Translations under genes and position numbers: made by a program | Shown: in pieces, positions 21,387 to 62,600 of the stretch | Layout of the letters: each line of letters starts with the position of its first letter | Position numbering within the stretch: position 1 is the first letter of the stretch | Source of the DNA: Balanoglossus misakiensis | Lineage: Eukaryota; Animalia; Hemichordata | Length of the DNA stretch: 64,000 nt | Direction of reading: 5' to 3' | Assembly: GCA_040954595.2 (NCBI GenBank) | Contig: CM082576.2 | Coordinates: 12,217,129 to 12,281,128 of the forward strand | Notes under the pieces: generated by a model | The model's database searches: none | What the model was told of the DNA's origin: nothing | What the model saw: the letters and a program-made list of their open reading frames with translations, nothing else

Positions 21387-21455
21387 GATGTTCGGATGCA
21401 GTGCGTTCAGATGGTCGAGTGTAGGTCTTCTTTGCGTGCTAGTGAGCTTCGGTCT

Positions 21456-21528
21456 GAATGAAACATGGTTCTGGCTTTGCGTCTTATATAGTTTTTTTCT
21501 TCTTCTAAAGTTCACTTAAGTTGAGTCA
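21456..21528 (-). promoter_or_regulatory. GST core promoter: TATA box, Inr and upstream AP-1 site
   Basis: TATATAA at 21490-21484. Inr-like TCATTC at 21461-21456 with its A 31 nt from the first T of the TATA box. TGACTCA at 21528-21522. Confidence 0.7.
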
Positions 21529-37500: not shown

Positions 37501-38985
37501 CGGCCTAATACTAATCGATCGCCACCCATGAAAAACTCCAATGTCGAAGTCAAAGTCGTTCGGTGCGATTTAGTTTTTATTTGTTCTTGCGTTAAGTTGA
37601 TTCAGTGTCGCTATGTTGCTCGAAAATGTTGGCTGAATTGGCCATCGGAGCTCTAAACCTACAAAGGATAGGACGACACTGAGTATCATAATTTTTGACA
37701 GCAGATACAACTGTTCGACAAAATTTCTCACAATTACATGTACTGTCAAAAATACAATATGTGTAGAAGCAAGGCCTCAGATTTTCACATCTTGCTAGGT
37801 ACCCATATGTTGGACTGAACTATAGGTCATTGACGATCAAATGTCTTGCTGGTTGACTCACCTTGAAACAAATGAAGTTATTTACTTATATAATGTTTCT
37901 ACATACGAAAATTTACTATATAAAGATAAAACCATGTAGTTTTAGGGCCATAAAACCTATGCCATCGTTATCACTGTGGGAAACTAGAGCAGCAAAAATA
38001 CAAAAATATTCGCCAAAAAGTCACAGTTAGAATCTCAATGTGCTAATTCGCATGGCATGAATCGACTTGAGATTTTGTAAATTATCTATAAGGTGCACAT
38101 CAGAATGTACCCGACGGACACAGCGCATTTGCGAGAGAGAGAGAGACAGAGAGAGAAAAAAACTTATCAAGAATTGATGAGTTAGTTATAGTCCCAGTGT
38201 TAAGAAATGTGCGGTCTAGCGTTCGTAAGTTATGCGTGTTATCAAATGGACATAAATTAAACAAGTGTTGAATAATGTAAGACGTTTACCCTAATTGGCG
38301 AGAGGCTCATATAATGTAGAAGGGAGTGATATACGTGTAATTTCATTATTTTGTAAACTCACTGAAATGTGTTGTCAACCGGGCTGATAACACATGTATC
38401 TTGGGAATCATGAAAAAGGGCAAACGACACGGAGAAATTCAATTCTGATCCCTAAGATATTATAAAGGTGGATTCCTAACCAGCCACGCCACGTGTGGAG
38501 ATAAATTTTAGATGGAACAACAACATCAGGTCATATTATCGAGGTTACGATTGTCCCTCGAGATTTACCTGTGGACGTGTAAAGATTTCGAACGCGCCGA
38601 GCTCTTCCCTGTCTTTCTGATATCACCCGGTAATTGAGTCCATTCTGGTGGGATGCGGGCACGATTGAACTAGCTGCACACCCAGGCTCACACGTTACGT
38701 ATAACGATGGCTAGCTGCATAATTAGTCTGACGTGTTTATAGCGCACATTCAAGTCGGCCACTATCGCTCGCGTGTGACAACTGACTACGCATCCTCGTG
38801 TGCTAATTACCATGCAAATTAACCCGTCTCTGTCTTTTTCATTACAACGTGCTAATTGTTGAATCATCGCTCTTCAATTGCGTCATGACAGGGATCTGTT
38901 AATAAGTTTATGCCGGTACTATAAGTGCGGGCAGCTCCAGTTTGAGAGGAAGAACACACGCGGAAGACACATAGCCGTCGGAGTA

Positions 38986-41900
38986 ATGGCGTATCCGGGA
39001 GCAAGGCAGAAGAGGACGACGAAAGTGGAATTCGAGCGATGTTTGCACGATTGGAAACCGGGTGTCGATGCATCCAAGGCGGCTAGAACAGCGGAGGAAA
39101 TAACAAGGAGGTAAGAGTTTCTGTAAAAAAAAAACCGCACTGAGTATATACAAAGATGACAATTGCGCTTTACTCGAATGATGGTCATCCAAAATTAGGG
39201 GGAGAATTCTCCTGTCTTTCACTGCGAACATCCATGCTGTCCCATACAACACATTTTATCGGTCACCACACTAAAATACGGGCGACGTGACATCGTGTAC
39301 ACGAAGCTTAAATTTTGAACCTTTTCGTTCTCCCCAAATCCCGACTATTCATTCGGAAGACACTACCAGTCATTCATTGCCACCGGAAGCATTGCGACGT
39401 ATTTCATTGGAGATACATAACGCTTGTTTGACCGAGTTTCAGAGGCCTTTCCGGGGGCCAAACCAGTAAAATGTACGGGTATGGTCACAAAACGCAATTG
39501 CTTCGCTCATGTTACAATCCCGAAGCCAAAATGGGTACTTAATTCTTTATTCCAAAAAGTTCGCGATGTTCGCATAGCTGAACAACTCTACGTGTTCCGG
39601 CGAAAAACACCGAGACAACATCTGTTGCTGCTAGTAGTCTTCGACTATTTGTCAGATCGTGTTACAAGAGGGCGAAGTCGGTCGCGTTCACAAATTTACG
39701 AGACATGATTGTAAAATGCACCGTCGATATATTAAAATTGGAACAGATCTTTACTACTGCAAATAATATATGTTGTAGCCTGTCTGTAATTGCACGGTAT
39801 GTAGTCACGGTTACAAAATATTTGCATGGCGATAAATCCACATTTTTTTTAATTTTTGGTTGCTTTTTGCGGTATCACTATCAAATGTGTTCACAGACCG
39901 ACCTTTCACCTGACCTTGCGCTAGAACAGTTAAATGTACTGGTAGGCACTCTTACACTCTGGTCCTCTGGATTAAATGTGGATTTTGACCTATTGACCTT
40001 TCGGGAAGACTTGGAGACTCGTGAAAAATACCATCGTTCTTTTTTCACATTATTTAGAGAAAAAATGTCATATAGTATAGTATACACTTAACATTTTATA
40101 ACTATCCACACCAAACAGTCCATATAGACGTCGTGAGATAAATTTAGATTTTAATGACAAATCTATTTATAAATACAGTAATATTGGTCGGTTGTACATT
40201 CCCGGCGGTAACAATTTGAACTCCGTGGGAAACACAGCCAAAATAGTGTTCATCTGGTAGTGTATGGTTGTGTAAGACGACATATTCCAGCAGTCTTGCG
40301 AAAAAAGTACATCTGTCAGACTTAACTGATTTTTTTTGGAAATGCCGCGGGAAAAGTATAAATGAATTTGCCGATTTGCCACAGTGCCGTCACCATTCTA
40401 GCTGCGGCGACCTTTAACACATAAGTCAAATGCAATAATGGCCACATGATATGCATGTTGGCAATTTTCCAGTATTTCTGTTCTGTGTATCGGCGCGGTT
40501 GCATTTTCTGGTTCGAGTCTCTTTCGCATGATACACTGCCTACTGTGCATATATTTATCAACTCCGAAGCGCCCATGTGTGCACGAATTGCATTGCTATT
40601 TGTCAAAAAAAAATCAAGATTTATATTCGGACTGAATTCATTTGTCAGCAGTAACAGTGGTCGTTACTCACGCTGACTCAGGCTGTGTTTAATAATCAGA
40701 ATTCTGGAACGTGTTGTCCAGCTGGCACGGGGAGTTGAATTGAAACCACAGACACCAAATTAAATAGCCAACTTCTGTCGCTTCACTACTCGTCACATTT
40801 TTAAAAAGCACCGCCGGTCTATACCAAACAACACCTTCTCAGATTAAATTTGTCAACTTTACTACATGGATTTCTTATCCATTTTCTTTTCACTTTCTAT
40901 TAAATCGCTTGATTTTTAGTGTGTTTTCCCTTTGATAACCACCGGTATCATCCGACAAGGGCGAACGACAGGGAATGAGAATTTTGCTTTGTCATTTTTC
41001 TTGAGTTGCATCCGCCCCATATAGTATATTTTTCGGTTCATGTTTAAATGTTCCTCGCGTTGTACCCACATGTTATTTCTATACGACTCTCCAGGCGTGA
41101 AAGATTGCTGGAAATTTTATCCGACCAAGATGCCTCCGCGATGGACGCCATTGAAGCTTTGCGACAATATCTTGAAATGCCTGTGAAACAGCTTATAAAC
41201 ATGGTAAGAATCCCAACAAGGGATAGGTGCTACTCCCCCGGGGCTCTCCCCTTAGAGGGGTATACACATACGTACCTTGGTTTTGACCCCCCCCCCTTCT
41301 CTGTCGCTTTGCTGTAAACATTTAACAAAAATACAAAAAAATAGAATTGTGCGATATTGACAACCATTGCAGGTTGGACGGTCGGTTTGGTTCTTGCGAG
41401 AAAAGAATAATCAGACCGACTACGAATCCAAAAACTGTGGTCATCACACGTCCAGAAAACGTGACACGGACAAAGCAATTCAAATCTAAGTGACATGCCT
41501 ATATTGATTGTTTATCACCTTTTCTCACCCTCAGGCGAACGGAACGGCAAATATCAGGTAAGTTCCTTTGAATGTTTCCGCAAACGCATGTTATAGATCA
41601 CGATAGTTAATGAAAACCTGACATTTCACTGTGTTACGGCACGCTGGCCGTTCAGTTCCGAAACAGGGCAGTGAGCAAATATAGTTACCACAACTAAACA
41701 TTGGTAAATCTAAAAAGATTGTACACGGGGAAGAAAACACACACAAAAAAAAATAAATGACTACCTTAAATGTGACCAGGTGTGGGAAATGAAAGAATAA
41801 AGTTCATGGTTCTGTAGCGCACGACGAACGCGACCAGCACCACGGCAGTCCCAACAGTGACGTTCAGTCCGAGTAGCGTTCTGGCACAATTCCCCGGTAG

Positions 41901-44900
41901 ACGGCACGGCTTTCAGACGAATTCCCCCATGAGGTAGCACGACTTCTGGGCGCGGTTTCCAGACCAGGTCAGCATGAAACAAGGCACAGCTTCCAAGCCG
42001 GCGAGGAACAGATTAACAGCTCACACGGGCAAGTCCAAATTAGTAGCAACGCCGCACACAACGTGCGGGCTTTTTATATGGGGAAAATAATGAATGCACC
42101 ACACCTGGTCACGCAAAATTCAAATTACGAAAGTAAGCGAAAACACACCTGGTCACAAAACAACAGCAAACTTCTCCTACGTAACAACTGTCTCTGACAG
42201 TTGTGGGCTCGACTCTGGGCCAACAATCCCAGCGCTAACTATTCCTCAAAAGTGTCCAGCATTCGTATCATGCCAGTTTCTAGAAGACGTTGGTTACAGG
42301 CTTCAAATAGGACACCTCTGCTTTAGACGTTACAGTTTATGTAATGAATGACTAACGTTATTCTGAAAATGCTGAACTGTCAATCGACAGGCCCTCACTT
42401 TTACGTAGTTCCTGGTTTGGACCTTACCACATACCCTGGGGCGATGCAGCACAGGCGTTGTATAGTATGCCGTAGTACCATAGACCATGGAGTGCATAGA
42501 CCCAGGGTATGGTGACCCGTAGTTGTCTCCCTCAGGAAAGGGCTTATATACGTTTTCCTATCTCAAACTGTTGTAGATTTTACTGGTTGAACACCGTCGG
42601 CAGTGAAGTCACAGTCCATTTCGATGATGCCATCTTCGACTTTTCCTCCATTATGATGAAGACGGCGCTGTGGATGAAGGAACAGGGTATCATCGTTCTG
42701 GCGGTAAGAGAGTTTCATAAGTGGCGATGAGCGCCAACAGCCTGTATTGAATTCAAGGGCTCCTGATATAGATTATGTCTGTCTGTCTGTCTGTCGGTCG
42801 GTCTGTCTGTCGCCAAAGTAAAACAGTACTGCCGTTACGCCCTTTTCACGAAATTGCTCCTTCTCTTCTTCCCAGGATCCTGAAAACTTGCTGTGGGCAG
42901 CTGCTATATTCGATTGTATGCTGGAATTGAATTTGAACGGATCATCGCCAGATTTACACAGTATGTGCCGGTTTATTCTATAATGATAATCATTATACGA
43001 GTTTTCTACATTCGCCCAATCAGTACACGACAGCTGAGTAACCCCGCTTCCTTCTTTTCGCAGGACAGAATGTCAGAGCGTTATCAGTGCAATGTTCGGG
43101 AGAAGCGTTGGTAAGTGTTAATATACCTTCATGAATTATTTTACACTGTGTATATAAAAGAAATTGCCCGAACACTGAGTGCCTTGCTCTGAGTGGTCAG
43201 ATACGAGCGTCCCTGCATGCAAATGAGAAATGACGAATTGATGACGTCAGGCTGTCATCGACTCGTGATGGCGGCGGCTAACAGTAGTCGACCAATGCTT
43301 ACGTATTTCTCCGACATAGCTCTTTCCTACGACACTAAAATTGTGATCACTGATATATATGTATTTACAAATCTACAAAGTTATGATAAAATGTGATAGT
43401 TCGAAAAAACTCATAATCACTTCCTCTCCTCGTCTCTACCCTCTTTACAGTTAATGAGATGTCGAGATAATCTAGAATTCTTGTCACCAAGTCAGTGTCG
43501 AGACATCGCTATTTTAGCGGCAGAGAGGTTTGAAGAAACGTTAAACATCATAGACGTAAGTAACATTTTGTCATTTATCCGTGAAATGGTATTTCATTCG
43601 CAAAGGCCTAACATATTGAAACCTTGTCCGTGTACTCAGTTGACCGGTTAGTTTTTGATGGTAGAGTGTCATACTATTGCTGCTTGTCTTTGCAGGGACA
43701 AACAGAAAGCGGCAAGAAATGGAAAGAGTTTGTGAAGTTTAAATGTAAGTATACTGAGATTTTACAACCACCGCATTTATCTTAAGTTATTGAAGACATA
43801 TGCCTATATACACATGCTGACCCACCAACTCCAAAGCTATGAGTGTGACCATCGACCATACAGGAGGGTTGATGGTGTGACTGTATGTATGCCATTCCCT
43901 CAATATCTTTGTGAATAGATCGCCAATAACAAGACACTATTGACGATTCTCATTTAATTTCGAACAGATAACTTGTGTTATGCACTAGCAAGGACATTTC
44001 AGTCGAAACTTCTCTCGGAAAAATTAAGGTAAGCATGCAGGTAGCAATATTCGGACCGTTTCATCTGTTTCAGCGTCTGTTAACTTCGACAAAAAGTTGA
44101 AAGTGATAAACCTAAATCCACGTGAAAGAGATGACGCCGGATTTCACTATTGCTCGCTGAAGCTATTTCCACACATGCGTGTTACAATTGTTGGAACTTT
44201 AACGTCAGGTACAGTGTTTTTTTGTCCTTGTCGAATTGTAGACATGAAGAAGCTATGTCTGCCGTAAAGCATGCCAAGTATCACATGAGACTGGCCAAAG
44301 AAAAGGCGGAGGTGAGTAGATACAGGGGGCGCAAAATCAGAACAGATAATCAGTGGTACGAGAGGGAGGGGAAAGAGAACGGAGAGCATAGAGGAAGAGA
44401 TAGGGACAGAGGGGGAGAGACAGAGGGTGAGAAGGGTGATTATATGAAATATGAGAGAGTGGGAAGTTGAAAGCAGTTTCTTGATCAGGCATCCTTATAT
44501 GACGTATATCGACTTGAATTTTTATCCTCAGGGCTTCGATGTATTTGATCCGGCGACAGTCATCACGCTATCACGAGGAGAAGAGTTTCGTAGGTCAGTC
44601 AAAGTAACATATTCACAGCATTTGTCCTCGTTTAAATGACGTGGCAATACAAACATTTATATTGACATTTATATTTATTATTAAAACCGCGAGTAAAAAA
44701 TGATAGTTAATGGGCCTAATGCTCAAAATGACATCACTATCTATATTTTTTTTTGTTTTTCTCGTTTTAAACTATTCAAGCGCAAGTTATAATTTGTTTT
44801 GCCTAACTTTCTTTGTAATTTGTCATGATTTTGTAATAAAAATATTTGTTTCAGAATCGATTTCTTGGTGGAGAAGAGAATACAGGAATGTGAGAAGATT

Positions 44901-45945
44901 TCAGGTCTCAAAGTTACAGACGATGTACGCATTGTAGGTTTTTGAATGTTTTTAATGTTGTGATTGCATTTTCCGTCCCCTTTTGTCTTTTACTCTAAAT
45001 CGAATAATAAAATATGGAAAACTTCCATATATGCACAAGCCACTATGGAAATATCCGAATTGTAGTTGAACGGGTATTATCTATGTTTATAACACGGTGA
45101 ATATTTCCCGTTGTTATTTTTAAAGGAAGCGAGTCCACTGCAACTCGGTCCAAACTGGGAAGAGCTGGTGGACCAGAGAGTGTTCCAGCTGCCGCCAAAG
45201 CAGTACAACACGTGAGTATACGTACGCGCATGCGTGTTCTTTCTGGCCCAGTCATTCTGAGGTGGTGTCGTTTGTTTCAATCCTAGCGGAAACTCATAGT
45301 ACATCACTTGTCACTTCATGTATTGTTTTTGCGGAGTTTTGCTGTTTTCTAGACACGCATTTCGAAGTTGAATGCCGTCACAAGATCATCTTACCAATTA
45401 TTGACCAATGCTCACAAATGTCAGACAAATTACTGCATTTGTATCTTTGTGATATTCTTTGTATTCATCTCCGCAAAAACGACATAGTCGTGAATATCTG
45501 AATGGTTTTTGCCGTTGATCACTTCTGGCAATCGATTAAATCATGTTTTTTGGTCAACCAATTCTTTTCTGGTTTGTCGTATAGATGGCTCGGGGATATT
45601 TCCAACGGAATTTCGAGTAAGTAGTGACGTCATCATTTCAAACGTTGAAATTTAACATCTCTTGATTTTCTTGTCAATACTGTGCTCCTATGAATAGTTG
45701 AAAGACATCCGTCTGCACGCTAAAGTTTAGTCATTTTCATTTCCCTTCCCTTGTCAGCTCCCGACGGAATACCCAGCGCTGACGAATCCGGTTTCGAAGA
45801 ACCATCGTGTTGTATAGTATGTTTGTCTGAGTGCATCGCATTGCCGCGGAGATTTGTCAGGTGGATGTTCGGCAAGTCAGACGACGAAGAAACGCAAATG
45901 ATCGCACTCGAGCAAAAACAGTACGGATCGAGCGCGGGCGAATAA
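38986..45945 (+). CDS. Divergent BRO1-domain protein, BROX-like paralog, 412 aa, 15 exons
   Basis: Exons 38986-39110, 41095-41203, 41535-41557, 42577-42703, 42876-42960, 43064-43110, 43451-43555, 43696-43744, 43968-44028, 44242-44311, 44532-44593, 44855-44924, 45126-45211, 45585-45616, 45758-45945. All introns are GT-AG with matching phases, giving 1239 nt. Colinear similarity to remembered human BROX: KRTTKVEF~KATAPVSF, RERLLEILSD~RARLLELFTD, FYWLNTV..DAIFDFSSIMMKTALW~FKWTDTL..DAVFELISMGFNVALW, LWAAAIF~KIAAGIF, VQCSGEA~IQCQAEA, KKWKEFVKFK~AKWRKYLHLK, LVEKRIQECEK~LVKNTLEKCQR, VFQLPP~PFEFPP. Confidence 0.85.
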
Positions 45946-48931
45946 AAACAAAAGAATCGATTCAAAGCCGACTCCAGGAGGTGTGAGGGCGCTCGAGAGC
46001 GCGAACTGCCATAGGATGACAAGGAAACCAAGTGTTTAATTCATAATTGGGGTAATTTACATATGTAAATATTTTTAAAAGCTGGAGATTTATAACTGTG
46101 GATCTTTTATTATTTTACTCGTTGGAAGTGTTTTAAAATGATCACTATTTATCGTGGCCACTGCTCAGCTAGGGGAGAGTCACTTAATATCAGATGCAAA
46201 CTTGAATGCAATTTATCTGAACTTCTATACACTATTTTTGTCAAGACAGCCCTACTGCATCAGACGAGTGGTCTGACGACAGTACGGTCTTGATCACTAC
46301 ACCGTATAAATATCACACACAATCACTCTCCTTTTTAATTGGTTAGTATACAATTTTCCACAGTCTTTACCTGTAGACCCCTTGTATTCGAATTGTATAG
46401 TACAGTAATTTAAATCTAAGCCAAGATTTCAATTTCTATATTAGTTGTGCAATATTAATTTTAACGTGTAAATATATCAATAAAGATTGTATAAAATACA
46501 GGTATCTTTGTCATTGTCTGTGTGATCTACCGTTGAATAAATGATTCTGTGTAGACAACTGCCTTGCCAGTAACAAATTGCTCATCTACTCTGACATGGT
46601 GACCGTCTCATGTGAAAGAATCTTACACACAAGAGATGTGTTAAGATCCCCTATCGTGAAAATGTTAGCCGGGCATCAAAGCCCGCTTTGCATAAATAAG
46701 CTCATGGGCGTGATCGGAATCTACGCATAAAACACGACCCACCTTAAATCAACAATTTCGGGCAAACACTTGAAACAAATTTCCTTTGTGAGACGAGAGT
46801 ACAGGTTACACAATAATATATAAAATTCAAAATATAATCTATAGACACGTTACAATATATTAACGAGAATGGAAATGCACGGTACTCCCAAGATATTAGA
46901 ACGTATCATCTTCGGCCCGGCCTACCTGTACATTATACCATACAATAGAATGGACACCAAAATATGATATTACAAATGTCATGTACAGAGAGATATAAAG
47001 AGTTTTTATCAGCTTTCTATAAACTTGCTAAAACATAATATCCCGTGGCATAAGACTCAAATTACAGTGCCAATCGTTTTCGTCTAACTGTTAGCTAAAC
47101 TTAAATAGCTTAGTATGGTAATTAAGATAAACCTAAGTCAAGATTTTTTTTATCGTGCGCATATATGCGCTGGCTGGATTCCATTGTAATGATACCTGTC
47201 GTCTGCGCGACACATTATCCAGTCTGACATCTGTGATTCATTTTTTTTCAACAACCAAATGCGAAACATAAACAAACCCCTCTTATATCTGTTAATTAGT
47301 AAAACGTTTTTGATTAACTATTGTCACGAATGTGAAACCTGTTCAGTTGAAGTCGCAGTTTCATTCTGGGGTGGTGCCTGGACATTCCGTGCCCAGGTGG
47401 ACGAGTCACTAATACTCGAGGTGTGCGTAGGAAGTGGACGATAGGCCTATAGTCAACGTTCAGCTATCTTTTCAACGTTACGTATACACCATCGATAAGG
47501 TTTTCTTACTACATTTGAATATAACATAAAAAGCCTGTGCATTGATGTGAACGGAAAAGTAAGGTATGTGACGTAATAACCCCTACAACGACTAATGACA
47601 GGTGTGTAGCCCACACGCAGTTGATCCAAGCAGCCAAACCCTTCGCGGAATTATACGTCCAGCTTTAGAAAATATGGTATAAACAATGTTATGAAGATAC
47701 ATCGAACTCTTGGCGGACTTGTATTAGTAATTTGAACGAGTTTTGGGACAAGTGTTTAAAAATTAATAGTTTTAATATATTGTTTATCTGTGGAGATACA
47801 TGTTTGATATTAACAGCCGACTGGCCTGATAACAATCAAACCTCTGACAAAACTTGATCGAGGTGAAATGTGAGTAATCACGTGATGGTGCCGAATGAGT
47901 CGACACGACAAACTATATTCATTCATTCACTTTTCCAGTCATTTGCTTCGCTCTCCAAGCTACTTATCCATACGATTTTGCACCGAAACACACACTCGGT
48001 GAAATATACCATAAGCGTGACTCCAAAATGAATACATTATTAATTGGGTTCAGAGGTCAGATTGAGAATTAAACAGCAACCGGGCAAGTGTTAACTGTTA
48101 TATTTTATCGACTAAAGTTTACAGTCTGAAAAAAACGGTTGCAAGGTTTTCTGGTCACACCGTGAGAAATACTGACCCAGATTGGTCCCAGCAAACCCAC
48201 TCAGCTGCTACAAACCACAGACTTGTGGACACTTAACACCGTGATGTCATGTTCAACATTGAAGGGTAAGAAGTGGTAACCATAGGGATACGACACCATT
48301 CCCATTTCAGGACCTACAGCTTAGGAACATCATACCCCCAGCACATATAATACCCGATTGCCCGGTTTAACTACGCGGTAATAGCAACCTTTGTACAGGT
48401 TATACGCGAGGAAAATCAGCCGAAGCACAGACAAGACTTGGCCACTCCAACAGGTGGGTGAAATAATCATCAGAAATCTCTATAATAGTACATGTCCGAT
48501 TCGAACGGTTCAAGGCTGGGATTTTCTTTATCAAATCTACCAGTGATAGTTAACTCATTAATTAATGTGATATTTAATTAAGCAAGGATAAGCACCGCGT
48601 AAAAATCTATGTCAATATTGGCAGACTTTGCGCGTCCAGCGTCACAGGTGCACTAATTAGATTTAGCATCTAAAATATGCATGTCTTTAATTGAATGTGC
48701 TGAAACAATACCCTAATAAATATCATCGAGAATATACTACGGAGTATACTCCTATGAGATTTTAAATTTTCTAATTGTTTAGGAAGGTATATTCACTAAA
48801 AGGGCGTTATGTGGTAATATTTTGAAAGGGGATACAACGTATATTATGCTGAAGATAAAAATTATGTTAAAAATATAACGATAAACATAATTTCTTGTCA
48901 CACTTTTGGTCTTTTACTTTTTTATCAAGCT

Positions 48932-49482
48932 ATGTCGGAAGAGGAACCATCGGGCTGTCAGAAATGCTGCACCATTTTTCTGAAGATTTTGGCGCTGATA
49001 GTTTGCATACCGGTCGCTGTCATACTCACAGTCTACGGTTTATTGATATGGTTGCTGCTACTTCTGAGTAAGTACATCTACAAATGTCAAGAACCATTTG
49101 TGTATCAAGAGCGTTGTGCTGTGACAGGCTGACCATTGTTGCATAAGTTTATCGGGGTGAACAGTCTCGACGTTGCATTCATTCTGTTTTTAGCGACTTT
49201 AAATAAACATTATATATACACACCTCATCATTTTTGCAAAAGTTATAGGCCTACATGTATCACTAGTGTATTAATCAAGAACACATTTTTGTTTCTTGCC
49301 CACAAGTTCGTTGCTGCTGTCCGTGTTGTTCGCCGTGCATCATGTGCTTGCAGGCGATGCTGGCGTGGTTGACGAAGCTACCTTGGCGCTTTTGCAGATG
49401 GGTTGTCGGGAAACCAGCGGACGACGACTACGACGAAGAAAAACAGGTGTTCTCCGACGAGAAAGCCCTCTACGGAGACTGA
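48932..49482 (+). CDS. Small Cys-rich membrane protein, 103 aa, TAXIMIN-like (2 coding exons)
   Basis: Exons 48932-49067 (donor A|GTAAGT) and 49307-49482 (acceptor after a pyrimidine tract, stop TGA). Protein: MSEEEPSGCQKCCTIFLKILALIVCIPVAVILTVYGLLIWLLLLLIRCCCPCCSPCIMCLQAMLAWLTKLPWRFCRWVVGKPADDDYDEEKQVFSDEKALYGD. An acceptor at 48928-48929 precedes the ATG, and a candidate upstream exon lies at 48399-48453. Confidence 0.8.
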
Positions 49483-50229
49483 CCGCAACAAATACAAACT
49501 TTCACCGAGAGAGGGCGCCCTGGTGTAAGCTCAGTCGCTGCCACAATAGTTGTCCGGACAACTGAACTCCTTACAACTAGAACAGTTTTGTGAACAGCAC
49601 TATTTTATTGTAAACACTTGACTGTACTTGTCCAGTAAAACTGAACACAGAAATGCATAATAGTATAACTTTTCACACCAAGGTGGCACTGCACATTACA
49701 TGGCGTATTTTGGCCAATTTGGTTTGTCTCATACTGACACTTATTATTGGTGCAAATGTGACCATCAAAAACCTCTGTTGATCTAACGTTCCAGATGTAA
49801 CTGTTATGCAGATGAGCATGATATTGTTATTAGTGAATTTTCCCCACAAAATTCAAATGAATTTATCTTGGCACAGCACGAGCTGAAACACCTCAAATTT
49901 TCACTTCATCAAATGAATGTTGCATAACAAGAAATATTTAGCCTGTCCATAAAGTACAGTACTCACAGCGGGAATAAATTATGTCAATTGAAACTGTTCG
50001 TGCGATTTTCATGAATTTTTGGTATCTTTTGGCGAACAGACCACTTCTCACTCACATTCCCTCTGGCAGACAGTTGTATGCTCTTGCCCTCAAGGCCAAT
50101 CAATGTGTGTATAACTGCACTAACCTGATCTAGAACAGGATGGAAATATCAAGACATCATCCATACTGATTAACTTTGATAGCCAAGCACAGATCTTTCT
50201 GAAGCACAAAACTATGAAGACACTCATGG

Positions 50230-52670
50230 TTATTTTGTATGTTTTTTTATTCACAGGAATATATTTCCAGGAGTATTGGTTATTGCGTATAAATGTTACA
50301 TATAAAGTGCAGTAAAACAGTACAGGTTACAATAACAATAGAATTATTAATATAATTAACAAAATTACCTCCATGGAAAATTTGGAAATAGCAATTCAAA
50401 ATCAATCCCTGAAACTCAAAAGCATTGTGTTGTTAACACATCCCCCTCCTCACAAATGGAATAATCTGATGACACCCAAGGTCAAAGTTCAGAACAAGAA
50501 TTCACCATTTCATTCAAATGGGTAAAATATAGTCAGGATAAATTCAAAAATATTCTGCAACAAATGTGTAACTCTTTATTTTAAACACCAACAAAATATG
50601 AATTCAGTTTTTCCCAGGTTTTAGTATAAAGGTCTAGGAATCCAAAATTGGTAGGTATGGCGACAGTTTCAAATCCTAGCTATACAACTGTCTGACCTAC
50701 ATTCAAAAAATACTAAACACCATAGCTTAGATGGGTCAATATTGTAACATATATATATAGACTGGTTTCTCCATCACCAAAAATATACATACACAGTATT
50801 ATGTAATGAAAGAAATTAAGCTGCATTTTCCTCTCTCTCTTTAGTCTTCTGAAGACGTCCATGATTAACTACTAATTCTCTACATCTACTATATAAACAT
50901 TCAGGGCTACAAAGCTGAAATATTAAAGGATTGTGCACGTAAGTCACAGTTGCTATGGAAACTGTGATGTATATTAGGCAGGTGTTGATGAGATATAACA
51001 AGCAAGACTATAAAAAATAGCAGGACAACTGAGGGAACTGGTATGATTTCAGGAAGGGAGGGCCCCTTAAGACTAAGATATACAGCACCATTGTAGGCTC
51101 CCTAAGACCATGATAACTTGCTGCAACCACAGTCTCTTTTAAAATGGGATTGGGATTGTTCAGACAAACGGGCGACTAAAATGAGTCTACTCTGAACTAT
51201 CTCTGGTTGAAGCGAATGGAATTAGGCTCTTCAACCGCACTGCCGTTATGCAATGGATCACATGACTCCCACACCTGATCACATGACTCCATGCAAATGC
51301 ATCAAACCCAAATCACTATCACTATCTCCCACAAAACCCATTTATACTGCAGCATGGGTTTCTAAGAATGATTTGCAGTTTGTCGAGTGCAACTCTTTCT
51401 ATTAAATGGAAATTTGTCTTTAAAAATAAAGACATATTTTTTTGTTTTCTACCGGCTCTGGAATAACGATCTAAATACGAACTTCAAATCACTGTAGTTC
51501 TCATAAATCTGACAGACTGCACCAACTAAAGTCTTGTCTACTTTAAAGGTTATTGCAAAAATACACAGATTCCTGGATACACAGCAGCACCAAATTCAAT
51601 AATAAATTCATCCAATCCAAATGAAAACATCACATATTTCATTATTTTTTTTTAGTGAAAGTATTAAAGAAATCCAATACAAAAAGCAATCCACACATAT
51701 TTATGGACTTTCCACCACAAAATCAATGACTCCACCTTTAAAACTCCTCTTCTCTTTTTACATTTTATGACCAAATGTTAATGCTGCAAAAAAAAACCTC
51801 TAATATTTTGATCACCACCGTAAAAATGATGGGAAAAATGCATATAGTTGTGAAAGTGACTTTCACCCACCAAAGAGTCCCGTTTAAGTAGATATTTGGT
51901 AAATTGTCACACGAGGTGGGTAAGTATAAATGTTCCTTCCAGACACAGTCACGCCGTCATTATTCGTGCCATGTCGACCGCCACAAAACACCACACATTG
52001 ATAATTCTTTGCCAATTATTTTTGATTTCAACATTTAAAAAAAATATCTAATACACTTTCCCTTCTAAGCTATGCACAAAGCATAGACGTTTACAGAAAA
52101 CAATAAAATTGTCCCCGCTTTCACGGACATAAAAAACAAAAACATCCACCTCTCAAGAGAAAGTAAAATTGAAACCAAGATAATAATACACACGAGGTAT
52201 CTAATACTGATCAAAACATCAAAAAGCAAAAAAGTGGATGAAAATTTCAGATCGACTACACCGGACACACCGCTAATGCTAAATACATGTATTAGATAAT
52301 TATACTGGTGTCAATTAGTGGTAGGCAAGGCTCATAAAGGATAAAATATAGCTCTAATCAAGAACAGGGTTACCCATGATGACTTCAGACTTCTACACGA
52401 CCATTGTCTTTATAGTAAAAATGTCCCTAACATTAAAATATGTCCAAGATAAAGAATAACTGAAATGATTGAAAATGTACAGAGCTACACCAGCACAATC
52501 TGAACAATTCATAGGTTGTAAATAATGATTACATTAACAAGAGCAGCAACAACACACCCACACCATAAATGATTAACAGCGTGCCTTTTTTCTTCTTCAA
52601 ATAAACATACTTCGGGTTCACAACCAGCGGAAAATGAAGATAAAAACAGAGAAAAAAAATATCTTGGCGT
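50230..52670 (-). other. Probable ~2.4 kb 3' UTR of the spectrin gene
   Basis: AT-rich, CpG-poor sequence below the stop codon. AATAAA on minus strand at about 50246-50251, though other AATAAA hexamers also occur in this interval. Confidence 0.5.
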
Positions 52671-55600
52671 TTATTTCTTCTTGTGATGAAACATCGATCC
52701 GAACACTCCCCTCTTCTTTTCTTTGTCTTTCTTCTTTTTCTTGTCTTTGTCCTTCTCCCCGTGTTTGCTCGTGCTGGCCGGCAATGTGGCCGCTTTCTTG
52801 CCGGATTCGGCCGCCGGCGGAATGTACTCGGCTACCAGGGGCTCCTGTTGTTGTTGTTGTTGTTGATCGTTTGTTGGCTGTGCTGCGTCAAGAGACGGTG
52901 GTGCCTGTGAAGGTGCGGGTGCTGGCCGCGGAGGCTCAGCTGGCGGTGCTTGGTGGGGTGCGCTAAAATTATCGTTAGATGAGAGACTAACTGCGATAGG
53001 CTGTGCGGAAGAATCTGCATGGTAAGGTATGGCCGTGGGCGCGCCATCTTCTGGACCTTCAGACCCAGGATGCTGTAAACAAAAACAAAACAGCAGACGG
53101 CAACAGACAGAGAAAGAATGAGAGAGAGAGAAAAAAATCAAGATATCAGTGAGAAAGACAATTTTTTTGCACAGCATTTGTAGATTTACAATAATAAAAA
53201 CAATATATTTGTTAAAAGGGTTAGTAAAATATTTATTGAACCTAAGGAAAGTTGTTCTCTATTAGTGTTTTTATTCACACAGTTTTTTATTCTTACCACC
53301 ACCAGACAGACATACAGGGACGTGGAGTGTGCTTACTTTTACTACATGGTGCAGATTTTATTTTGATGAGAATGTTACCACCACCGATGTTTTTAAGTTA
53401 GTGAATATCATTGTGGAAGGAAGATTTGGATTAATGGCAACCTGGAAAGAGTACCGAGAGAAAAGTTTAAAATGAAGATGGCAGAAGGGGAATCGATAGA
53501 AAAGGACAGAAAAAAAGGGGTGGTATTCGTGTCGGGTGTCTTGTTAATATCGTTGATATTTCACTTGGTTCGGATTAGTGTATGACCCCCTAGGTTGACG
53601 GGAATAACTTAGAGGTCTTCTGTGTATAGGCAATGGTACCTGAGCTGGTTGTCCGTTTTCGACAAACGCCTCAGCCTCGGAGCTAGGTTGGTCGTGAGCG
53701 GTGGGCTGAGGGGTTTCAGGAGGAAGGGGAGAGGGTTCTCGTGCTGCTTCTCCTGCAGAAGATGTTCACCAGGAAAAAAGAAAGGAATAAAAAAACAGAA
53801 ACACGCGTGAAGAGAAACACAAAACAGGCAAAGAAGTGAGGGAGGGAAAAAAAACCTGGAAAGATCCGCAATCCGATGAGAGTTTCCAAAAAAAAACCTG
53901 GGCATTCAGATGATGTGAAAGTGATGACACACAGAGCAAGGCGCTTGGCACCGAAAAAGTCCTAATACATGTACGCTGAAAGACAGGCTTCTTTTGCAGG
54001 CAAACAGAGGAAGAGACTTTGAATGCAGCGTTATTATATTTTTTTTGCAAATGCTTTTTTTTTTTTTGCAAATGCTTAAAGTGATGGCCATGACATTCTT
54101 CTTTACATTTACTCTCTCATACCGTTGTTCTCTGTACATTCATTTTCCATTTAATGGATTCTGTGCAATATTCCACGATTAAACTCTTGAAAAATTTTGA
54201 CAACATGGCAAAATGCAATCCGCGTTCACATTTCAAGGGAGGGGACCCGAGTACCTACCGGGCACGTCTTCTTCCTCGGGAATCTCACCAGCAATTATTT
54301 CAGTTTCCAATAAGTTTGTGGGATAGCCTGAATAGGAATGCCTGACTATGGCGTGCTCTACACTGTCACTATGCTCGGACCCAGTCAGGGATAAATTGTC
54401 ATGAGCTCCGGATCCGCCGCTAAAGTCGGACATGTCTGCCTCGTCGCGGTCGTCCAATTTCCTTTCAAAGCGCGGGCTGGAATTTTGTTTGACCGAGATC
54501 TCGACATCGACATGGGGCGGCGGCAACACCTGGTGGTCGAAGACGCTGCCGTTGCCAACGTCGACGTCATTAGCGGGAGGGAGCAACGGAGGGGGGATCT
54601 CGCCCATGAAGGTGGTCTCTGGTGGTGGGGTTACGGGTAACACGGGCGGTTGCTCCACGGGTAGCGTGGGTGGCGGTGGTAGTTGCGACAGTGGTGGTGG
54701 TGGTGAGGACTCGGCCCGACCATTCTCGTGGGGGGGAGGAGGGGTCTGAGTCGGAGGTGCAGCCACTACGAAGGCGTCGCCACTACCTTTGCCGACCGGC
54801 ACGGGCACGGCCGCAGAAGACTCCACAAACTCTCTCCTGGGAGAATGTCCCGGCGAGTGAGAAGACAGAGAGGAAGAGCCTGAAGTCGGCTGAGAGGATA
54901 TCGAAGCACTCTTGCCAGCGGAACCAATGTCAAGTCCCCGGCTCGGTTCAAAGTCGGTCAGTTGCTTAGAAGGAGGCAAAGCTGCAATGCAAAATAAACG
55001 ACAAAAAAAAAAAACATATACAAGTTCACAACACAAATAACGGGACATTTCACTCGACAAAGAAACGCGTCAAACCTCATCTGAACATTCGCAATCTTCT
55101 CAAGATACTGAACAGTTCAAAGATGTCTTTGTCAATGCAATTCAAGTGTACGGAAATATTGATCAGAATTGACCAAATTGACAAAAATGTCTACCGCAAT
55201 TTCATTTTGGAATTCAGATGAATCTCGATATTCTAAATGAGGTTTAACCGCATTGCAAACTCAGGACTGAACCACTGCACAGCACAGAAGCAAATACTGA
55301 AAATGCCGCATATATAATTACGCGAGGGCGGAAAGAAAATGCCAGACATCTAAAATAAATTATCATTACAAAATACATTAACTATTCTGGACAACGGCAC
55401 CAGATTTTTTCACAAAGACTCACAGGCATGGAAGTTGATCTTGGAAATCCAGTCATTCATGTCTTCTTGAGATTTACATACAAATAAGAACTCTGAACCA
55501 TCACTGGTTCTACAAAGGAAAAGAAGGAGACAATAGGGAGAGAAGAGTGAGTTTTTATATCCTGTAATGAAGTGTACAGTTGGTTTGGAACACATTTTTA

Positions 55601-56661
55601 TAAATTATCACATTAGCGAATTCAGATTTTTCCTGGTCATATAAAAATGCTTCTGCTGCAACTGCTGTCTTCAGTAAGTCATTTCATCACTTGACCAGAT
55701 GTCAAAGGTCATTCAGGGTTAAAGGTCAACCGAGGATCATTGAACTACTCTGGTATCAGGGTATTGTCACTTACATTTGACAACCCTTGGGCAATCCAGA
55801 TATTGCTAAGTTTGTCATTGTGGGTCAGTTCAAGATCAAAAGTCTATTAGGGAGGGAGAGGTCCAATGGCGATTTGGGGGGGGGGGGGGGGGGTGTTTAC
55901 TCACTTGAGCCTGAATACGTGTTTCCTCTTGGTGTAGTCAGTGGCAACAGAACAGTGGGCTTGGTGGAGATTCGCAGGGGGTGCTGCAGCATTGCTCTGT
56001 AACCATGGCAATCAAAGAAGACAAGAGTTTTAGGAACACAACAAGCATCATAGGCAAGACTTTGAAACATGATGGATGCTTGAAAAATCCCTTTAAAATT
56101 TACTTGAAATCTTATGAGATACTTATATAAAGCGAAGTGAACTAGTATGTATGCAACAAAAATCCACATAATGATAAATCTTACCATAGTAAATTCTTTC
56201 CTGTCTTTGAAGAAACATAGCATCTGCCCGACAAGAGCTGCATAAAAGGTTTTCCATGACCTGTGTGTCGACTACAGAAAAAGAGATGGAACTCAATACT
56301 GGGACCAAATGGTGAAATACACATCACTTGTGACTCAAAGGGGGGAAAGTACCAAAACAGTATTATTGTTCATATCACAAGTGCTTACCCGTTTTCCACC
56401 AGCAGCTAGATCCTGTTTCCTTTCCAAAAGTCCCTCCTTTTCCAAGGGTGTAGGTTCTCCAGGCTGAAATCAATGTGGATGATAAAATCAGTGTGGGATT
56501 AAAACTCTAGCCTAGTAAGTTCAGACTGATGTCTGAGTATGTGTATGTCTGTCTGTCTCTCTCCAAGTCTGTCTGTAATTGTGTGTCCGTCTGTCCATCT
56601 GTCCGTCTGTCTGTCTGTATGTATGTATGTATGTATGTATGTATGTATGTATGTATGTATG

Positions 56662-56694
<33 letters not shown>

Positions 56695-59600
56695 GTACCG
56701 TATGTGTCTTCATGTATCAACGTATCTGTCTGTCTGCACATTTATGTACAGGCATTTCAATTCCAGATTATGCTTAAATTAACAGTTTTCCCTGTCATTA
56801 TTTTAATTACTGTTGTGTGTGTGTGTGTGTGTGTGCACGTGCAAGTGAGTGTGTCATGGTGTTTGTGTCAGTGTATACATTGGGTCAATGCAGTTACGGC
56901 AACAAAACTTTGTATTTATTCACAGTTTTGTATTTTATATCAATTTGGTTGTACGGCAAGTAGTGGACTTTCATCCCCCTCTCTAACATGCACTTAGGCC
57001 AGGCACTGCTTTTGAGCACATAAATATAACAGGCTCCTTGTACCAAAACCTTTCACCGAAAATTAAAGCACTGAATGTGAGTATTCATGATGATTACTTC
57101 ATATACATGTTATACAAATGTAATCAGTGTAGGGCAACAAGTAGGAATAACCCACTCATTCAAAAATTGGAAAGGAAACACATGAAAGAGAGAAAGACAG
57201 TCCACACAGAATATACTTAGTACATCAACACTTTGTGTTTTATGATGGGGTGAGATCAGAACACACAGTTTACTACACGTAGTGCAGAATACATTCAGTA
57301 GAGATACCAGAAGAGAACAACAAAAGAGTTTCTCTTCTCCCCTCCCAACCCTAGAAACCCCTAAACTACATGTACGTCTTTGGTCATTGCGCATGGTCTG
57401 CAAAGCCTTACTTTTTGTGTGTGTCAAGGCCGCTTATGGCTTACGTGGTACATGTTCCTTTATAGGCGCGGGCTTTGGGGTGCACTTTGCAGGGCAGCTG
57501 ACGTTGTGAAGGCTAGGCTAGCACTACGTCTACATATGACGAGTTTTCTCGTTTTTTGTTTTTTTACCTGCGTGACGCTATGAGACTCACCATCTTGAAT
57601 TTTTGCGCCTTGGCAGCTTTTTTGCCACCGCCACCGCCACCACCAGCGACACCGACACCCCCGCCACCGGCAGCAGCACCGACAACGGCGAATCTACTGC
57701 CGCCGCTGCTGCCGAAGCGGGTTCGGGTGTTGTCCTCCTTTTTGTGAGCCTTAACCACATGCTTCAGTTTCTTCTGTCGAGAGAGACGTGTGCGATGAAC
57801 ACAGAAGGGCGGGTGTGGAGACGACAGCAGACACACAGAGAGAGAGGGAGAGAGAGATTAAAGAGAAAACAAATGAACAGTACCCGCTGAGAAATGCCAC
57901 CATCACATAACGAAACAGAGTCGTATACAGTCCCTTTTGTGACACATGATAGAACTTGAAACAACATGCAATATATTGTCTAGTAAAGGTGACGTTAAGT
58001 TGGCAAAGGGTAAGATCTGAGGTTTGGTTTGCATAGGTATGATCACAACAAATGATGATGATGATGATGTTAAAGATGAAGTTCACAGAAAAGAGCCGTT
58101 TCCATGCCAATGTCTGTTTTTAACCCTACAGAAAACTAAGCATCACCAGAATACAGGAACCCCTGGTGTTCTACGGGATCCCAGTGGGCACTGAATCTAC
58201 CCAGGCTTTAATCCAGCCAACTTGCAATTGGCAGGCGCAACATTCGATTATATTATTGCTTACCATTACTACCATGCTATGGGAAAGTTTACTGGAATGC
58301 CGTAGGAATGGGTTTTGTTTAACAGCGAGCAATGATAGCTGTAGTGGATGCAGTATGTAGTGGTAAGTCGCATGGGTATCGCTGATATCGACCAGACAGG
58401 GAGGTTTTTTTTAGTCAGGGAGGGCAGAGGTCAGGGGTTAAAACAACTCTAACTCTCTAGGGATGACCTTCCCTGGGTTAGTACCATAACAACTATCTTT
58501 ACATGTGAGGGGTAACCTTTTTAACATTCCATGCATGACTGACTCCTCTAATCCTACCTGCTCCAACTCTTCCTGCAGTTTCCGCTCCATCTCCGCCTGT
58601 CTCTCTTCCCGCTGCCTGGCTTCCTGCTCCTTCCGTTGCCTCTCCTCCTCGATCCGGGCGGCGATCTTCCGCTGCTCCTCTTCCCGCTGCTTCCGGGCCA
58701 TCTCTTCCAGGGCCTGTTTGCGCTCCTGCTCCCGCCGCCTCTCTTCCAGGATCCGGGTCTGTTCCCGCTTCTTGATCTCCGCCAGTCTCTCTTGCTCCTT
58801 CCTTTCTTTTTCCTCCTGTTTGTGCTGCACCTCCACGTCTCTCTGCTTCTGGAAATCCTCTTCCAGCTGAAATGCGCATCATAATACATTTCAGGCACAA
58901 TTGCAGATCCAAACGATGGCAAAATTCTGCCATATGATAACTCCAGAGCACTCAATACCTGCTAGAATTTTATTTCCCTTAATTTCCAAGGCAATCATTT
59001 GAAGTCTATAAAACTGCCTGATATTTTGTTGCAAACATTACACCACAGTGAAATGGTCACGTTCAGGATTATAAATATCATTTCAGTGAAAATTATCCAC
59101 TAACCATTGTCATTCTCTCCAACGCCTTAAACCTGTCTTCCTGGGCTTCGATGGTCTTCTGAAAGTCTTCATGGCTTTTGATCATTTCCTCAATATTGCT
59201 GCCCTCCACCTGAAACACAGAAGTTACTGCATCATGTCTTACATGTACCACACCTAACTAGTCCACACTGCTACTTACCACACCTAACTAGTCTACACTG
59301 CTACTTACCACACATAACTAGTCTAAACTGGTACTTACCTTGTATGATTCATCCCTAACCAATGGTTCTCTGGCTGTCAACCAGGCCTCGGCCATGTCCA
59401 CATCCCGTTTGAAAAGTTGCGTGTCCAGATTCATGTCGTACAGAAGCTTGCGTTGATTCCATGTTTCCAGCAGTGTCTTGAAAGCTGCGTTTAATTTTTG
59501 AACTTTCTCTTTGATCTACAAAAGTATATAAACAAACACCATGAAAGCCTTATTTTTATTGGCTGAACATTTTTGTATCCTGTATCACTGAAGGAACATA

Positions 59601-62600
59601 TTTTGCAATGAATAGTGAACACCAGTGTGAAGGGTCAAAATCTCGAAGTGACCACTTAATTCAATGAAGTCATTTTACCTCATCGGCCAAAAAGTGACCA
59701 TTGTCGATGAGCTGCTGTCCGTTGTGGGTGAATTCATTAATACTGCTTGTCCTGGCATCGATCTCTGCTCTGTGTTCCATGTGTCTGGCTATGAGTGCTT
59801 CAGCTCCGGCCACGTCCTTGGCCAACTCGTCTGCTGTGATCAGAGCCATCATCCCCGACACCCAGGCACTGTCAGTCAAGAAAATAAAAATACGCAACTG
59901 TGAGAAGAAAAGTACTGCAATGGAGAGTGTAAAAACCACTTCGTGTTATTTCATTTATTTTATTCTATCTGTGATCCAACATGTGAAAGCCCAGTTGCAG
60001 ATTGAGGAAGGCACCACTCATAACGAGAAGAGCAATGAGAAGTACAGTGCCTTGAAGAAGGGCACAGCATCGCAGCCGTATGTACATGTAGGTCTGTCTT
60101 GAACTCGCTATCATCTGGTAGTGAGTATGGCCATTGGACTGCAATTCCTTGTATTTTACATGTCCTAACACTGTACACAGTAAACATTACAGAGACAGTC
60201 GACATTTTAAAAAAGTCAACTTCAATATATCGTAAGTGTATCTGTGTTGTAGCTAAAATGTCACTGCAGGGCTTAAAACATTATTTTTTTAAATTTTTAG
60301 ATGAGTGCAACGCAGCACTAACAAGTTCGTATTTTACCTTAATTCTCTATAATTATCGAAGTACGACTGCAGTTGTTCCGATTGGAGCAGTTTATCTTTC
60401 CTCTGGTCTGCCTTCCCGAGAAGTAGATTCCAGGATTGTACAACTTCTTCCCTCTTTCCCATGATTCTGTCGCTGGCCTCCGGATGCACTTCCACAAGTT
60501 GTTCAGCCGTGTTGCAAATTGCTTCCACCTGTTCTCCTAGGGCAGCAAGATCTCTCTGTGAAAAAATGGACAAAAAATCATTCTCATTAAGGACATAGGT
60601 CTGATGTCTATTTCTATAAGAATGGGGATTTTCTGACTTGAACAGGATAAATATTAAAAGTATATCCATAATTAAAATAGATGATTTTGAAAGTTTTTTC
60701 ATCTCTCATTACAAGTTCACTATCTCAAACAACAATTTCTAATTTGGATTCTAAAACCCTTCACAAAAAAATCTAGATTACGATTTGGGGTATGTTGCAT
60801 TTTCCTTTCACCATTAGCAAACACGTGGCAATTTTTTCTCTATAAACTTGACTTCATCTTACCTCAATACCTTCATGTCTCCTCAGAAGAGCATGAACAC
60901 TGACCAGATCGTGGCCAAAGTCCTCACTGGACACTGATGAGCCCTTCTCTACGATCCATGCTCTGGTCTCGTCTGCATCATGGTCAAATTGATGTACCTG
61001 CTTAGCACTCGCAAGGGCCTGGAGGCAAAACACAAGTATGTACATTACAACACAGGTCAGCAATATGTCACTTTAAGATACTTTTTCTCCAGAGTAACAT
61101 TCTAACATTTCATTTGAAAGGGTACGATTAATTGCAGTAAAACCTGTCTAAATCGAACACTGTCCAGTCTGGAAACCCGTCTATACCAAACTCAGTTTTC
61201 ACTCCTTTTCACACAGAACCACATTGTTTAAAGAAACTCTATAAACTGGACACTTCCAGTAACCAAACAATTTTTTTTTCAGTCCCCTTAATGTTAAGTT
61301 TAGACAGGTTTTACTGTATACATGTATCAAGGTCTTAATAAAGAGAATGCAAACTTTTGTGAAAAAATATTGGAAAGTATAACACACCACTGCCCACTTA
61401 AACAGTGATATGGTTATTTTCTGGAGTCTAATCTGAATGGAAACTTGCCTCTATTCTTGTATTGGTCAGTTCTTGCAGCTGCGCCCACTCCTTGTTGACG
61501 TCATCGCACTTGGCGTGGATGTCATCGGCGTTGTTGTGGCCTTCCTGTATCATTGCACTCCCCATCTCGTTCACGGCCGTTATCCTGTCGGCGTTCGAAT
61601 TCAAGTCCTGCGCAAAGTCCTCGAATTTCTTCTGCAGTATCTCCACGTGTTCCAGGTCCTTTCCGTAGTCTTCCGACGACGCGATGCCTTCCTTTTCCTT
61701 CATCCAGCCCTCCACCTCGTCCACTTCCCGGTAGAACTGGTAGAGTTTCCGGTGCTCCATCAGCAGGGCTCGCCTCGTCGTGGACAGCGCGATCAGCTCG
61801 GCGTAGCTTGCTTCGACTTCATTCTGAAAGTTGTGCAAATATACAGGCCATCATGAAACCACTTGTTCAGAAAGATACCACATACTTTCTAAATACTACA
61901 TTTGGATCTGCACAATTGGTACCGAATGAGCCCATGAAATGAAAGTGTGCAAATCTCTGAGATACAAGTCTAATGCAGCAAATCACATCAGCTGTTGCAG
62001 CGCAGTCTGGTTTCGCATACCTGTTTCTGAATGATGTCTTCACTCTCAAAGTGCTCCCGTTCGACAAGGCCGCTGCTCAGTTTCTGGAGGTGGGCAACAG
62101 TGTCTTTGAAACCCTCAAGATCTAGATCTAGGGCTTCCAGTTTCTTCAGGAGTGCCTGGACCGAATCCTCGTCCTTGCCATAGTCGGAGCTCGTCAACAG
62201 AGGGCGCTTTTCTTTCATCCAGGACTGGGCCTCCTGCACTTCTGCGTAGAACTGTTGAGTGAGACAACATTGCACACTCAGACAAATTCAACAAAAATAT
62301 ATTCATTCCTAAGGTTTAAACAGTGAAACTTAGAAACTAAAGTCAACCACCTTCCTTGTGAAATGATTGCCACATTCTGCCATGCCTGACTTTCTTGTAT
62401 TTATTTATGAATTAAATCATCACCATCATCATCATCACCACCACCATCATCATTATTATCATCATCGCATCATCATCTTCATTGCCACCACTACCACTAA
62501 CACCACCATCATCATCACCACCACCACCACAATCATCATCACCGCCATCACCACCACCATCTTCTCCCCAATATACCACATACCATTTGAGATTCCAATG

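Follow-up and report, generated by a model that had tools for sequence, protein, structure and literature searches.

The window analysed here, 64,000 nucleotides of the Balanoglossus misakiensis genome, holds a short spliced open reading frame (ORF) that resembles TAXIMIN, which is cited as a plant-specific secreted signal and whose function is called unknown in the available text of PMC4526920. Is this frame a genuine member of the TAXIMIN family, how did it come to lie in an animal genome, and what would its product do there? We consider it probable, on balance, that the frame encodes a TAXIMIN-family anchor that is inserted in the membrane and likely S-acylated, is not secreted, and is likely tied to BROX-type ESCRT adaptors. 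BROX itself is an ESCRT-III adaptor.

The frame joins positions 48932-49067 and 49307-49482 and encodes 103 amino acids followed by a stop codon. Coding exon 1 (48932..49067, +) supplies an acidic start, a Cys cluster and most of a 28-residue hydrophobic run with a proline at run position 9, and coding exon 2 (49307..49482, +) supplies the R-CCCPCC block, a second, amphipathic helix with KLP-x4-RW, an acidic YG tail and the stop. The predicted intron between them (49068..49306, +) is 239 nt long and in phase 1, with donor GTAAGT and acceptor CAAG. When splice sites were scored with a matrix built from 14 introns of the neighbouring BROX-like gene, the donor ranked 7th among 201 GT sites in 45946-49300; the acceptor, which is the sole AG acceptor within 49290-49319, scored a weak 2.1, yet this was inside the range of that gene's own acceptors. 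We infer the 49067/49307 splice from these features. The ORF had a GC3 of 0.65, the intron 0.36 and the sequence upstream 0.31, and this coding-type value for the ORF supports a genuine coding frame. The first AATAAA 3' of the stop lies at 49973. At the sequence level, then, the spliced 103-aa ORF proposed in the initial annotation was borne out, with its canonical intron, open frame and coding-type GC3. A pyrimidine tract with an AG acceptor at 48928-48929 (48900..48931, +) lies two bases 5' of the ATG. This acceptor is in phase 1, matching the acceptor phase of the last exon of the BROX-like gene, and its score of 6.8 places it within the top 7 of 177 AG sites in 45946-49400. Neither this acceptor nor the BROX-like gene further upstream, with its last exon, had been noted in the earlier reading.

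The setting of the ORF, placed earlier among animal genes, is animal-like. Upstream are a Spec3-family exon (PF15795, E 3.9e-6; 14513-15163, -), which encodes another Cys-containing membrane protein, glutathione S-transferase exons (GST_C_3, E 6.2e-6; 17913-21515, -), and exon-like frames of a further gene (29909-30789, +) that precedes the BROX-like gene. Downstream, and convergent with the ORF, lies the 3' part of a beta-spectrin-type gene (52671-63819, -) with spectrin repeats, a weak PH match and a long low-complexity tail. No Rfam match was found in 38000-53000 of the window.

Three kilobases upstream of the ORF, we found a predicted gene of 15 small exons (38986-45945, +) with an open 415-aa frame. 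Exons 1-14 (38986..45616, +), with all introns GT-AG, encode a divergent BROX-like protein with a single BRO1 domain and no V domain. This protein scored 35.0 bits against an algal-type BRO1 profile (best of 300 shuffles, 4.6) and is collinear along its length with algal-type BRO1 proteins at 17-22% identity; its exons taken singly gave no Pfam or PDB hit. Since a CAAX motif is absent from both possible C-termini, we class the gene only as BROX-like. By indirect mapping through the Bryopsis protein, human L212 of the CHMP4-binding Surface 1 corresponds to Ile191, at a position that is hydrophobic in Bryopsis as well. The residue matching human K141 is Ser in Bryopsis; in the window gene this position is lost to a 14-residue gap, which interrupts the helix that bears K141 in the human protein. 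The CHMP4-binding surface of BROX-like proteins thus appears not to be clearly kept.

The last exon of this gene (45758..45945, +), which we call tail A, reproduces the TAXIMIN-like ORF in truncated form (tblastn within the window, E 1.4e-6, 42% identity). It retains EEPS-C, the Cys cluster, LP-x4-RW and the acidic YG tail, and is without the hydrophobic run and CPCC. An AATAAA overlaps its stop (45941..45946, +), and further ones occur at 46479 and 46536. Fifteen of 27 aligned residues are identical to those of the ORF, seven of them via changed codons, with 64% identity at the DNA level; this retention of residues through changed codons suggests that tail A is an old duplicate under selection. 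Given its animal-type acidic YG tail, it is more likely a local duplicate that the BROX-like gene took over than a direct relic of an algal-type fusion.

Along the predicted 103-aa protein, a Cys cluster is followed by 28 uncharged residues, the ninth of which is a proline, bounded on either side by K/R; CxCPCC, a second helix and an acidic tail come next. The motif described earlier was matched exactly (G36-x2-I39-W40-x7-C48-x-C50-P-C-C-x2-C56 ... L67-x-K69-L-P-x4-R76-W77), and the hydrophobic segment, put at about 30 residues, proved to be the 28 uncharged residues 19-46. This run length is exact in 11 of 12 BRO1-linked proteins and in 8 of 10 animal-type proteins found in the searches described below; none of the 12 BRO1-linked proteins has a CAAX terminus. 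The run is preceded by 13-73 residues in the animal proteins and by 420-512 in six full-length BRO1 fusions. TAXIMIN has been described with three conserved prolines (PMC4526920), and P27, P51 and P71 of the ORF align to columns that do not vary in the plant alignment or in the animal one. Of the six conserved cysteines described for the C-terminal part of TAXIMIN, the ORF has those of the CxCPCC block and the next one, and lacks the terminal Cys. An AlphaFold model of the relative from Dimorphilus (pLDDT 77) has an unbroken helix at 5-44 and then a helix at 46-74; it gave no Foldseek match, and another fold search returned only generic helical hairpins (Z<=8.6). A YG motif (49468-49479 and 45919-45930, +) lies near the end of the acidic tail in the ORF, in tail A, in the Dimorphilus, Tubulanus and Owenia proteins and in P0070.

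We then asked whether this likeness to TAXIMIN reflects homology. A degenerate DNA pattern made from the ORF motif matched 89 metagenome loci, among them seven plant TAXIMIN transcripts and one further locus, L066; the other 81 were judged by eye to be chance matches, and all 19 matches in a motif scan of viral contigs were chance-like. L066 (184-804, -) holds at least three exons of a non-plant-looking TAXIMIN relative, with introns at positions unlike those in the window and rich in CA/GA repeats, which we take to recall choanoflagellates. We next combined one plant protein with both exons of the ORF and the L066 exon in a search profile. At E<=0.001 it picked out 110 of 1.84 billion proteins; among these, P0135 is a false positive due to a repeat, and P0054 probably represents a plant gene model joined in error. 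By best local profile, the 110 hits were 62 plant-type, 10 animal-type and 38 algal-tail-type. The plant query proteins belong to clusters that bear the name 'signaling peptide TAXIMIN 1' and carry the Pfam family PF28483 (TAXIMIN) in the ESM Atlas, and PF28483 is also carried by 2 of 9 hits of another search, the Dimorphilus and Tubulanus proteins. The copy of Pfam that we scanned gave no hit even for plant TAXIMINs; PF28483 belongs to release 38.1.

With a profile of seven animal-type proteins from which the window was left out, the ORF scored 100.6 bits, as against 38.7 for the best of 1500 layout-preserving local shuffles; the same profile gave 44.8-82.6 bits for nine BRO1 fusion proteins and 19.8-48.0 bits for 18 plant-type proteins. 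The ORF scored 57.3 bits with a profile of nine fusion tails, compared to 21.5 with a plant-only profile of 18 diverse sequences. None of 1500 local shuffles reached the score of the ORF in the animal-type, fusion-tail or plant-only profile, and the significance linking plants to the ORF passes through intermediates chosen by a profile that held both plant and window sequence. A grass-heavy plant profile gave the ORF 12.8 bits, equalled by 5 of 2000 local shuffles. In the reverse direction, a profile of six named animals gave four plant TAXIMINs 36.6-41.3 bits, a score reached by none of 1000 local shuffles of each, and reversed plant TAXIMINs stayed below 4 bits. Alignment of the plant profile with the animal profile gave a probability of 97.8 and an E of 6.5e-13 over 63 columns. 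Among 51 members, no match to the CYSTM, PLAC8, zf-LITAF, CD225, Spec3 or Caveolin families of Pfam was found at E<=0.1, and these six names were absent from the first 25 of 47 families listed at E<=10; no other Pfam family recurred. Pfam searches with single exons of the ORF gave nothing useful, and word-based searches with only exon 2 as query gave no hit among proteins of 31-100 aa or of 101-2000 aa. A possible likeness of the hydrophobic start to caveolin found no support in PDB profile searches or Pfam and was dropped. The shuffle-tested profiles, the presence of PF28483 on animal relatives and the profile-profile match uphold the identity proposed in the initial annotation, and the 103-aa frame is almost certainly a homologous member of the TAXIMIN family (PF28483), as judged from sequence.

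Land-plant TAXIMINs (TbTAX of Taxus; TAX1, At2g31090, and TAX2, At2g20562, of Arabidopsis) share with the ORF a hydrophobic run with a proline, G-x2-[IV]W-x7-C-x-CPCC, K-[LA]-P-x4/5-W and two coding exons. They are 73-75 aa long whereas the ORF is 103; the ORF has three fewer residues from the proline to G-x2-IW, and a basic residue before its Cys block limits the run to 28, compared to 45-49 uncharged residues in land plants. The ORF ends in the acidic YG tail and the land-plant proteins in a terminal IPC. The plant intron, placed by means of mis-predicted plant proteins (20 of 31 read-through proteins have an Arg before the exon-2 block), would lie in phase 2 and interrupt the Gly codon found three codons 3' of the Trp; the ORF intron differs in phase and is shifted about 8 nt in the 3' direction. 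The ORF thus falls outside the land-plant clade in length, terminal IPC, intron position and tree placement. Land-plant TAXIMINs (P0003, P0004, P0041) have an invariant Pro-Cys as their last two residues, which might be lipidated; the animal forms do not have this terminal site.

Ten animal-type and other non-plant hits were looked up, and six clusters were named animals of seven species: Dimorphilus (CAD5119121.1), Tubulanus (LOC141904217), Owenia (CAH1794451.1), two Acropora species (LOC114957937), Lytechinus (LOC121417967) and Apostichopus (XP_071833423.1). These corals, annelids, nemertean, sea urchin and sea cucumber span Cnidaria, Spiralia and Echinodermata, and all seven proteins are annotated as stand-alone, at 107-159 aa. 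They contain the same module, with the 28-residue run in most and an acidic tail, and differ by N-terminal extensions of up to 73 aa. TAXIMIN homologues, described as plant-specific, are thus found in animals as well. The unnamed clusters closest to plant TAXIMIN in the ESM Atlas (0.83-0.87) were three mostly arthropod ones of 72-82 aa, which we note as leads.

Another 10 hits were looked up, and three came from named green algae (Bryopsis, Acetabularia and Dunaliella). In 10 of 33 hits scanned, a Pfam BRO1 domain precedes the TAXIMIN module, eight of them above the curated cut-off. Two of these fusions, recorded as unnamed or hypothetical proteins, belong to named chlorophytes, Bryopsis (GMH32323.1) and Acetabularia (EP01023 P066942), one of them from a transcriptome assembly, and the module forms the C-terminal end of the BRO1 protein. 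A local BRO1 profile detected a BRO1 part in 12 of the 38 algal-tail-type hits, six of which had been used to build it, and in 0 of the 62 plant-type and 0 of the 10 animal-type hits; a weak search of 7999 scored candidates of 94-2000 aa found no animal fusion. The best PDB match of the Bryopsis fusion was human BROX (E 1e-20; ALIX, 1.5e-3), and its model has a BRO1 fold, a disordered linker at 388-427 and helices at 430-463 and 465-492. The order of BROX-like domain, flexible linker and module in the chlorophyte fusions is that of the two genes in the window; the fusions differ in being one continuous protein, in a tail without the YG motif and in a far less divergent BRO1 part. Green algae have both a stand-alone form (P0053, Dunaliella, 77 aa) and BRO1 fusions (P0126/P0139; Bryopsis, Acetabularia). 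The BROX link draws on chlorophytes, on records without a species name and on one animal locus.

Cys clusters that flank a hydrophobic run are a feature of S-acylated membrane proteins. In the fusions, a cytosolic BRO1 domain would precede the run, which could then not be a cleavable leader and would be expected to sit in the membrane with its N-terminus in the cytosol; the flanking cysteines would be palmitoylated. TAX1-Venus and TbTAX localise to the plasma membrane, and TAX1 requires its N-terminal part (PMC4526920). Proteins with a single BRO1 domain are also known with lipid anchors, human BROX (PDB 3R9M, 3ZXP, 3UM3) through its CAAX site (PMC3230590) and Arabidopsis BRAF through S-acylation at the N-terminus (PMC6141507), whereas the BROX-like gene of the window has a TAXIMIN-derived tail and no CAAX. 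The layout of the run, the flanking cysteines, the plasma-membrane location of TAX1 and TbTAX and these lipid-anchored proteins argue that the TAXIMIN module is probably a membrane anchor, likely acylated and not secreted. An ordinary single pass may also be possible, with 19 residues after the proline and CxCPCC then outside the cytosol. The module would supply BROX-like proteins with the attachment that CAAX farnesylation gives human BROX, and we tentatively propose that TAXIMIN has a function in common with BROX/ESCRT.

It is possible, though we lean away from it, that the module serves as an all-purpose lipid or membrane anchor, acquired by BROX-like genes on separate occasions in chlorophytes and in the present animal, and that stand-alone TAXIMINs have no ESCRT role. 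The animal-type character of tail A would fit such a history, as would the absence of a fusion from the plant hits and the other animals and the readiness of BRO1 proteins to swap anchors, with CAAX in human BROX (PMC3230590) and N-terminal S-acylation in BRAF (PMC6141507). The same rare module would, however, have been taken twice by one adaptor family, which seems unlikely without a shared location or function.

The relation between the two neighbouring genes allows a further reading, which we think unlikely: that there is no separate small gene, and that the two ORF exons are only alternative 3' exons of the BROX-like gene (415 versus 457 aa). Exon 14 of that gene ends in phase 1 and joins the strong acceptor at 48929 in frame without a stop, giving a 457-aa protein with the algal architecture; both terminal exons begin AG|CT and have EEPS-C in common, and chlorophyte proteins that combine BRO1 with the module exist. 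Alternation of such exons would give the BROX-like protein either a short Cys tail, at 415 aa, or the whole TAXIMIN anchor, at 457 aa. However, the named animal relatives are annotated without exception as stand-alone, the ORF has its own ATG, placed where the Dimorphilus and Lytechinus proteins start, and tail A comes with a stop and poly(A) signals of its own. Strong donors also occur between the BROX-like gene and the ORF, at 48266 and 48454, and duplication by itself would account for the shared phase. Should the ORF be a gene in its own right, a candidate donor of a 5'-UTR exon is at 48263..48271 (+), the second best of the 201 GT sites, with 48454 as the alternative. The ORF thus probably yields a separate 103-aa protein, with a 5'-UTR exon spliced ahead of it; in addition to this or in place of it, and with lower probability, splicing onto the BROX-like gene may produce the 457-aa protein. 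The stand-alone microprotein of the initial annotation is hence likely, but it is also in frame with the upstream gene and so unproven.

That the ORF encodes a secreted Cys-rich signalling peptide, as plant TAXIMIN has been described, we regard as improbable. The available text of PMC4526920 reports an in-silico signal peptide and Arabidopsis over-expression phenotypes that need the N-terminal part, and a single-pass topology would put the cysteines in the lumen. Deletion of the predicted 'signal' of TAX1 would, however, also delete part of the hydrophobic run. The layout of the ORF does not fit a cleavable N-terminal signal peptide, as the run begins at residue 19 and is 28 long, and a signalling role is made doubtful by the position of the run behind 13-73 polar residues in animals and behind the BRO1 domain in fusions. 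The same available text places the TAX1-Venus fusion at the plasma membrane, describes an Arabidopsis double mutant without phenotype and names no receptor for TAXIMIN (PMC4526920).

The initial annotation had left open whether the gene is a member of an ancient, patchily retained eukaryotic family or was acquired horizontally. We built a tree of 67 rows and 78 columns, rooted at the midpoint, from which fragments and mis-predicted plant proteins were left out. The ORF clustered with 9 of 10 animal-type rows (UFBoot 81), with Apostichopus outside at low support, and 18 land-plant-type rows formed one clade (UFBoot 100) that excluded the ORF; deeper nodes were weak. This grouping with animals and not land plants favours ancient patchy retention over transfer, as do the homology tests and the relatives from corals to echinoderms, and an old family with many losses fits the origin of the ORF better than a recent transfer from plants. 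Acquisition from a plant or alga is very improbable: the patchy distribution and a BROX neighbourhood that recalls the algal fusion speak for it, but the tree, the spread of relatives across three animal groups, an intron unlike the predicted plant position and the identity of only 17-22% between the window BRO1 part and algal-type proteins speak against it. A very old transfer may nevertheless have taken place, given the 78-column tree and its weak deep support. Convergence of Cys-rich hydrophobic sequences, to which the low direct plant score, the strong composition bias and the differing intron position might point, is largely refuted and very improbable, given PF28483 on the relatives with no other family recurring, order-dependent scores far over those of local shuffles and reversed sequences, the profile-profile match and three prolines invariant in plants and animals.

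The presence of TAXIMIN in animals was latent in databases, as Pfam 38 already marks some animal proteins, and its association with BROX is the new element here. In a literature search in which subscription journals were mostly not covered, we found no publication on animal TAXIMIN or on a BROX fusion, and the taximin papers found all had plant subjects by title. A bolder and doubtful reading would make TAXIMIN an ancient eukaryotic membrane-anchor module of BROX/ESCRT-III and not a plant hormone, fused in algae, free in plants and invertebrates, and re-joined here, where alternative last exons would equip the adaptor with either a short Cys tail or a full anchor. The animal members and the BROX fusions offer another testable mechanism for TAXIMIN, that of a lipidated membrane anchor working with ESCRT adaptors. 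They also point to an unstudied invertebrate protein family and an undescribed type of BROX, and the divergent BROX-like gene (38986-45945, +) is worth study on its own.
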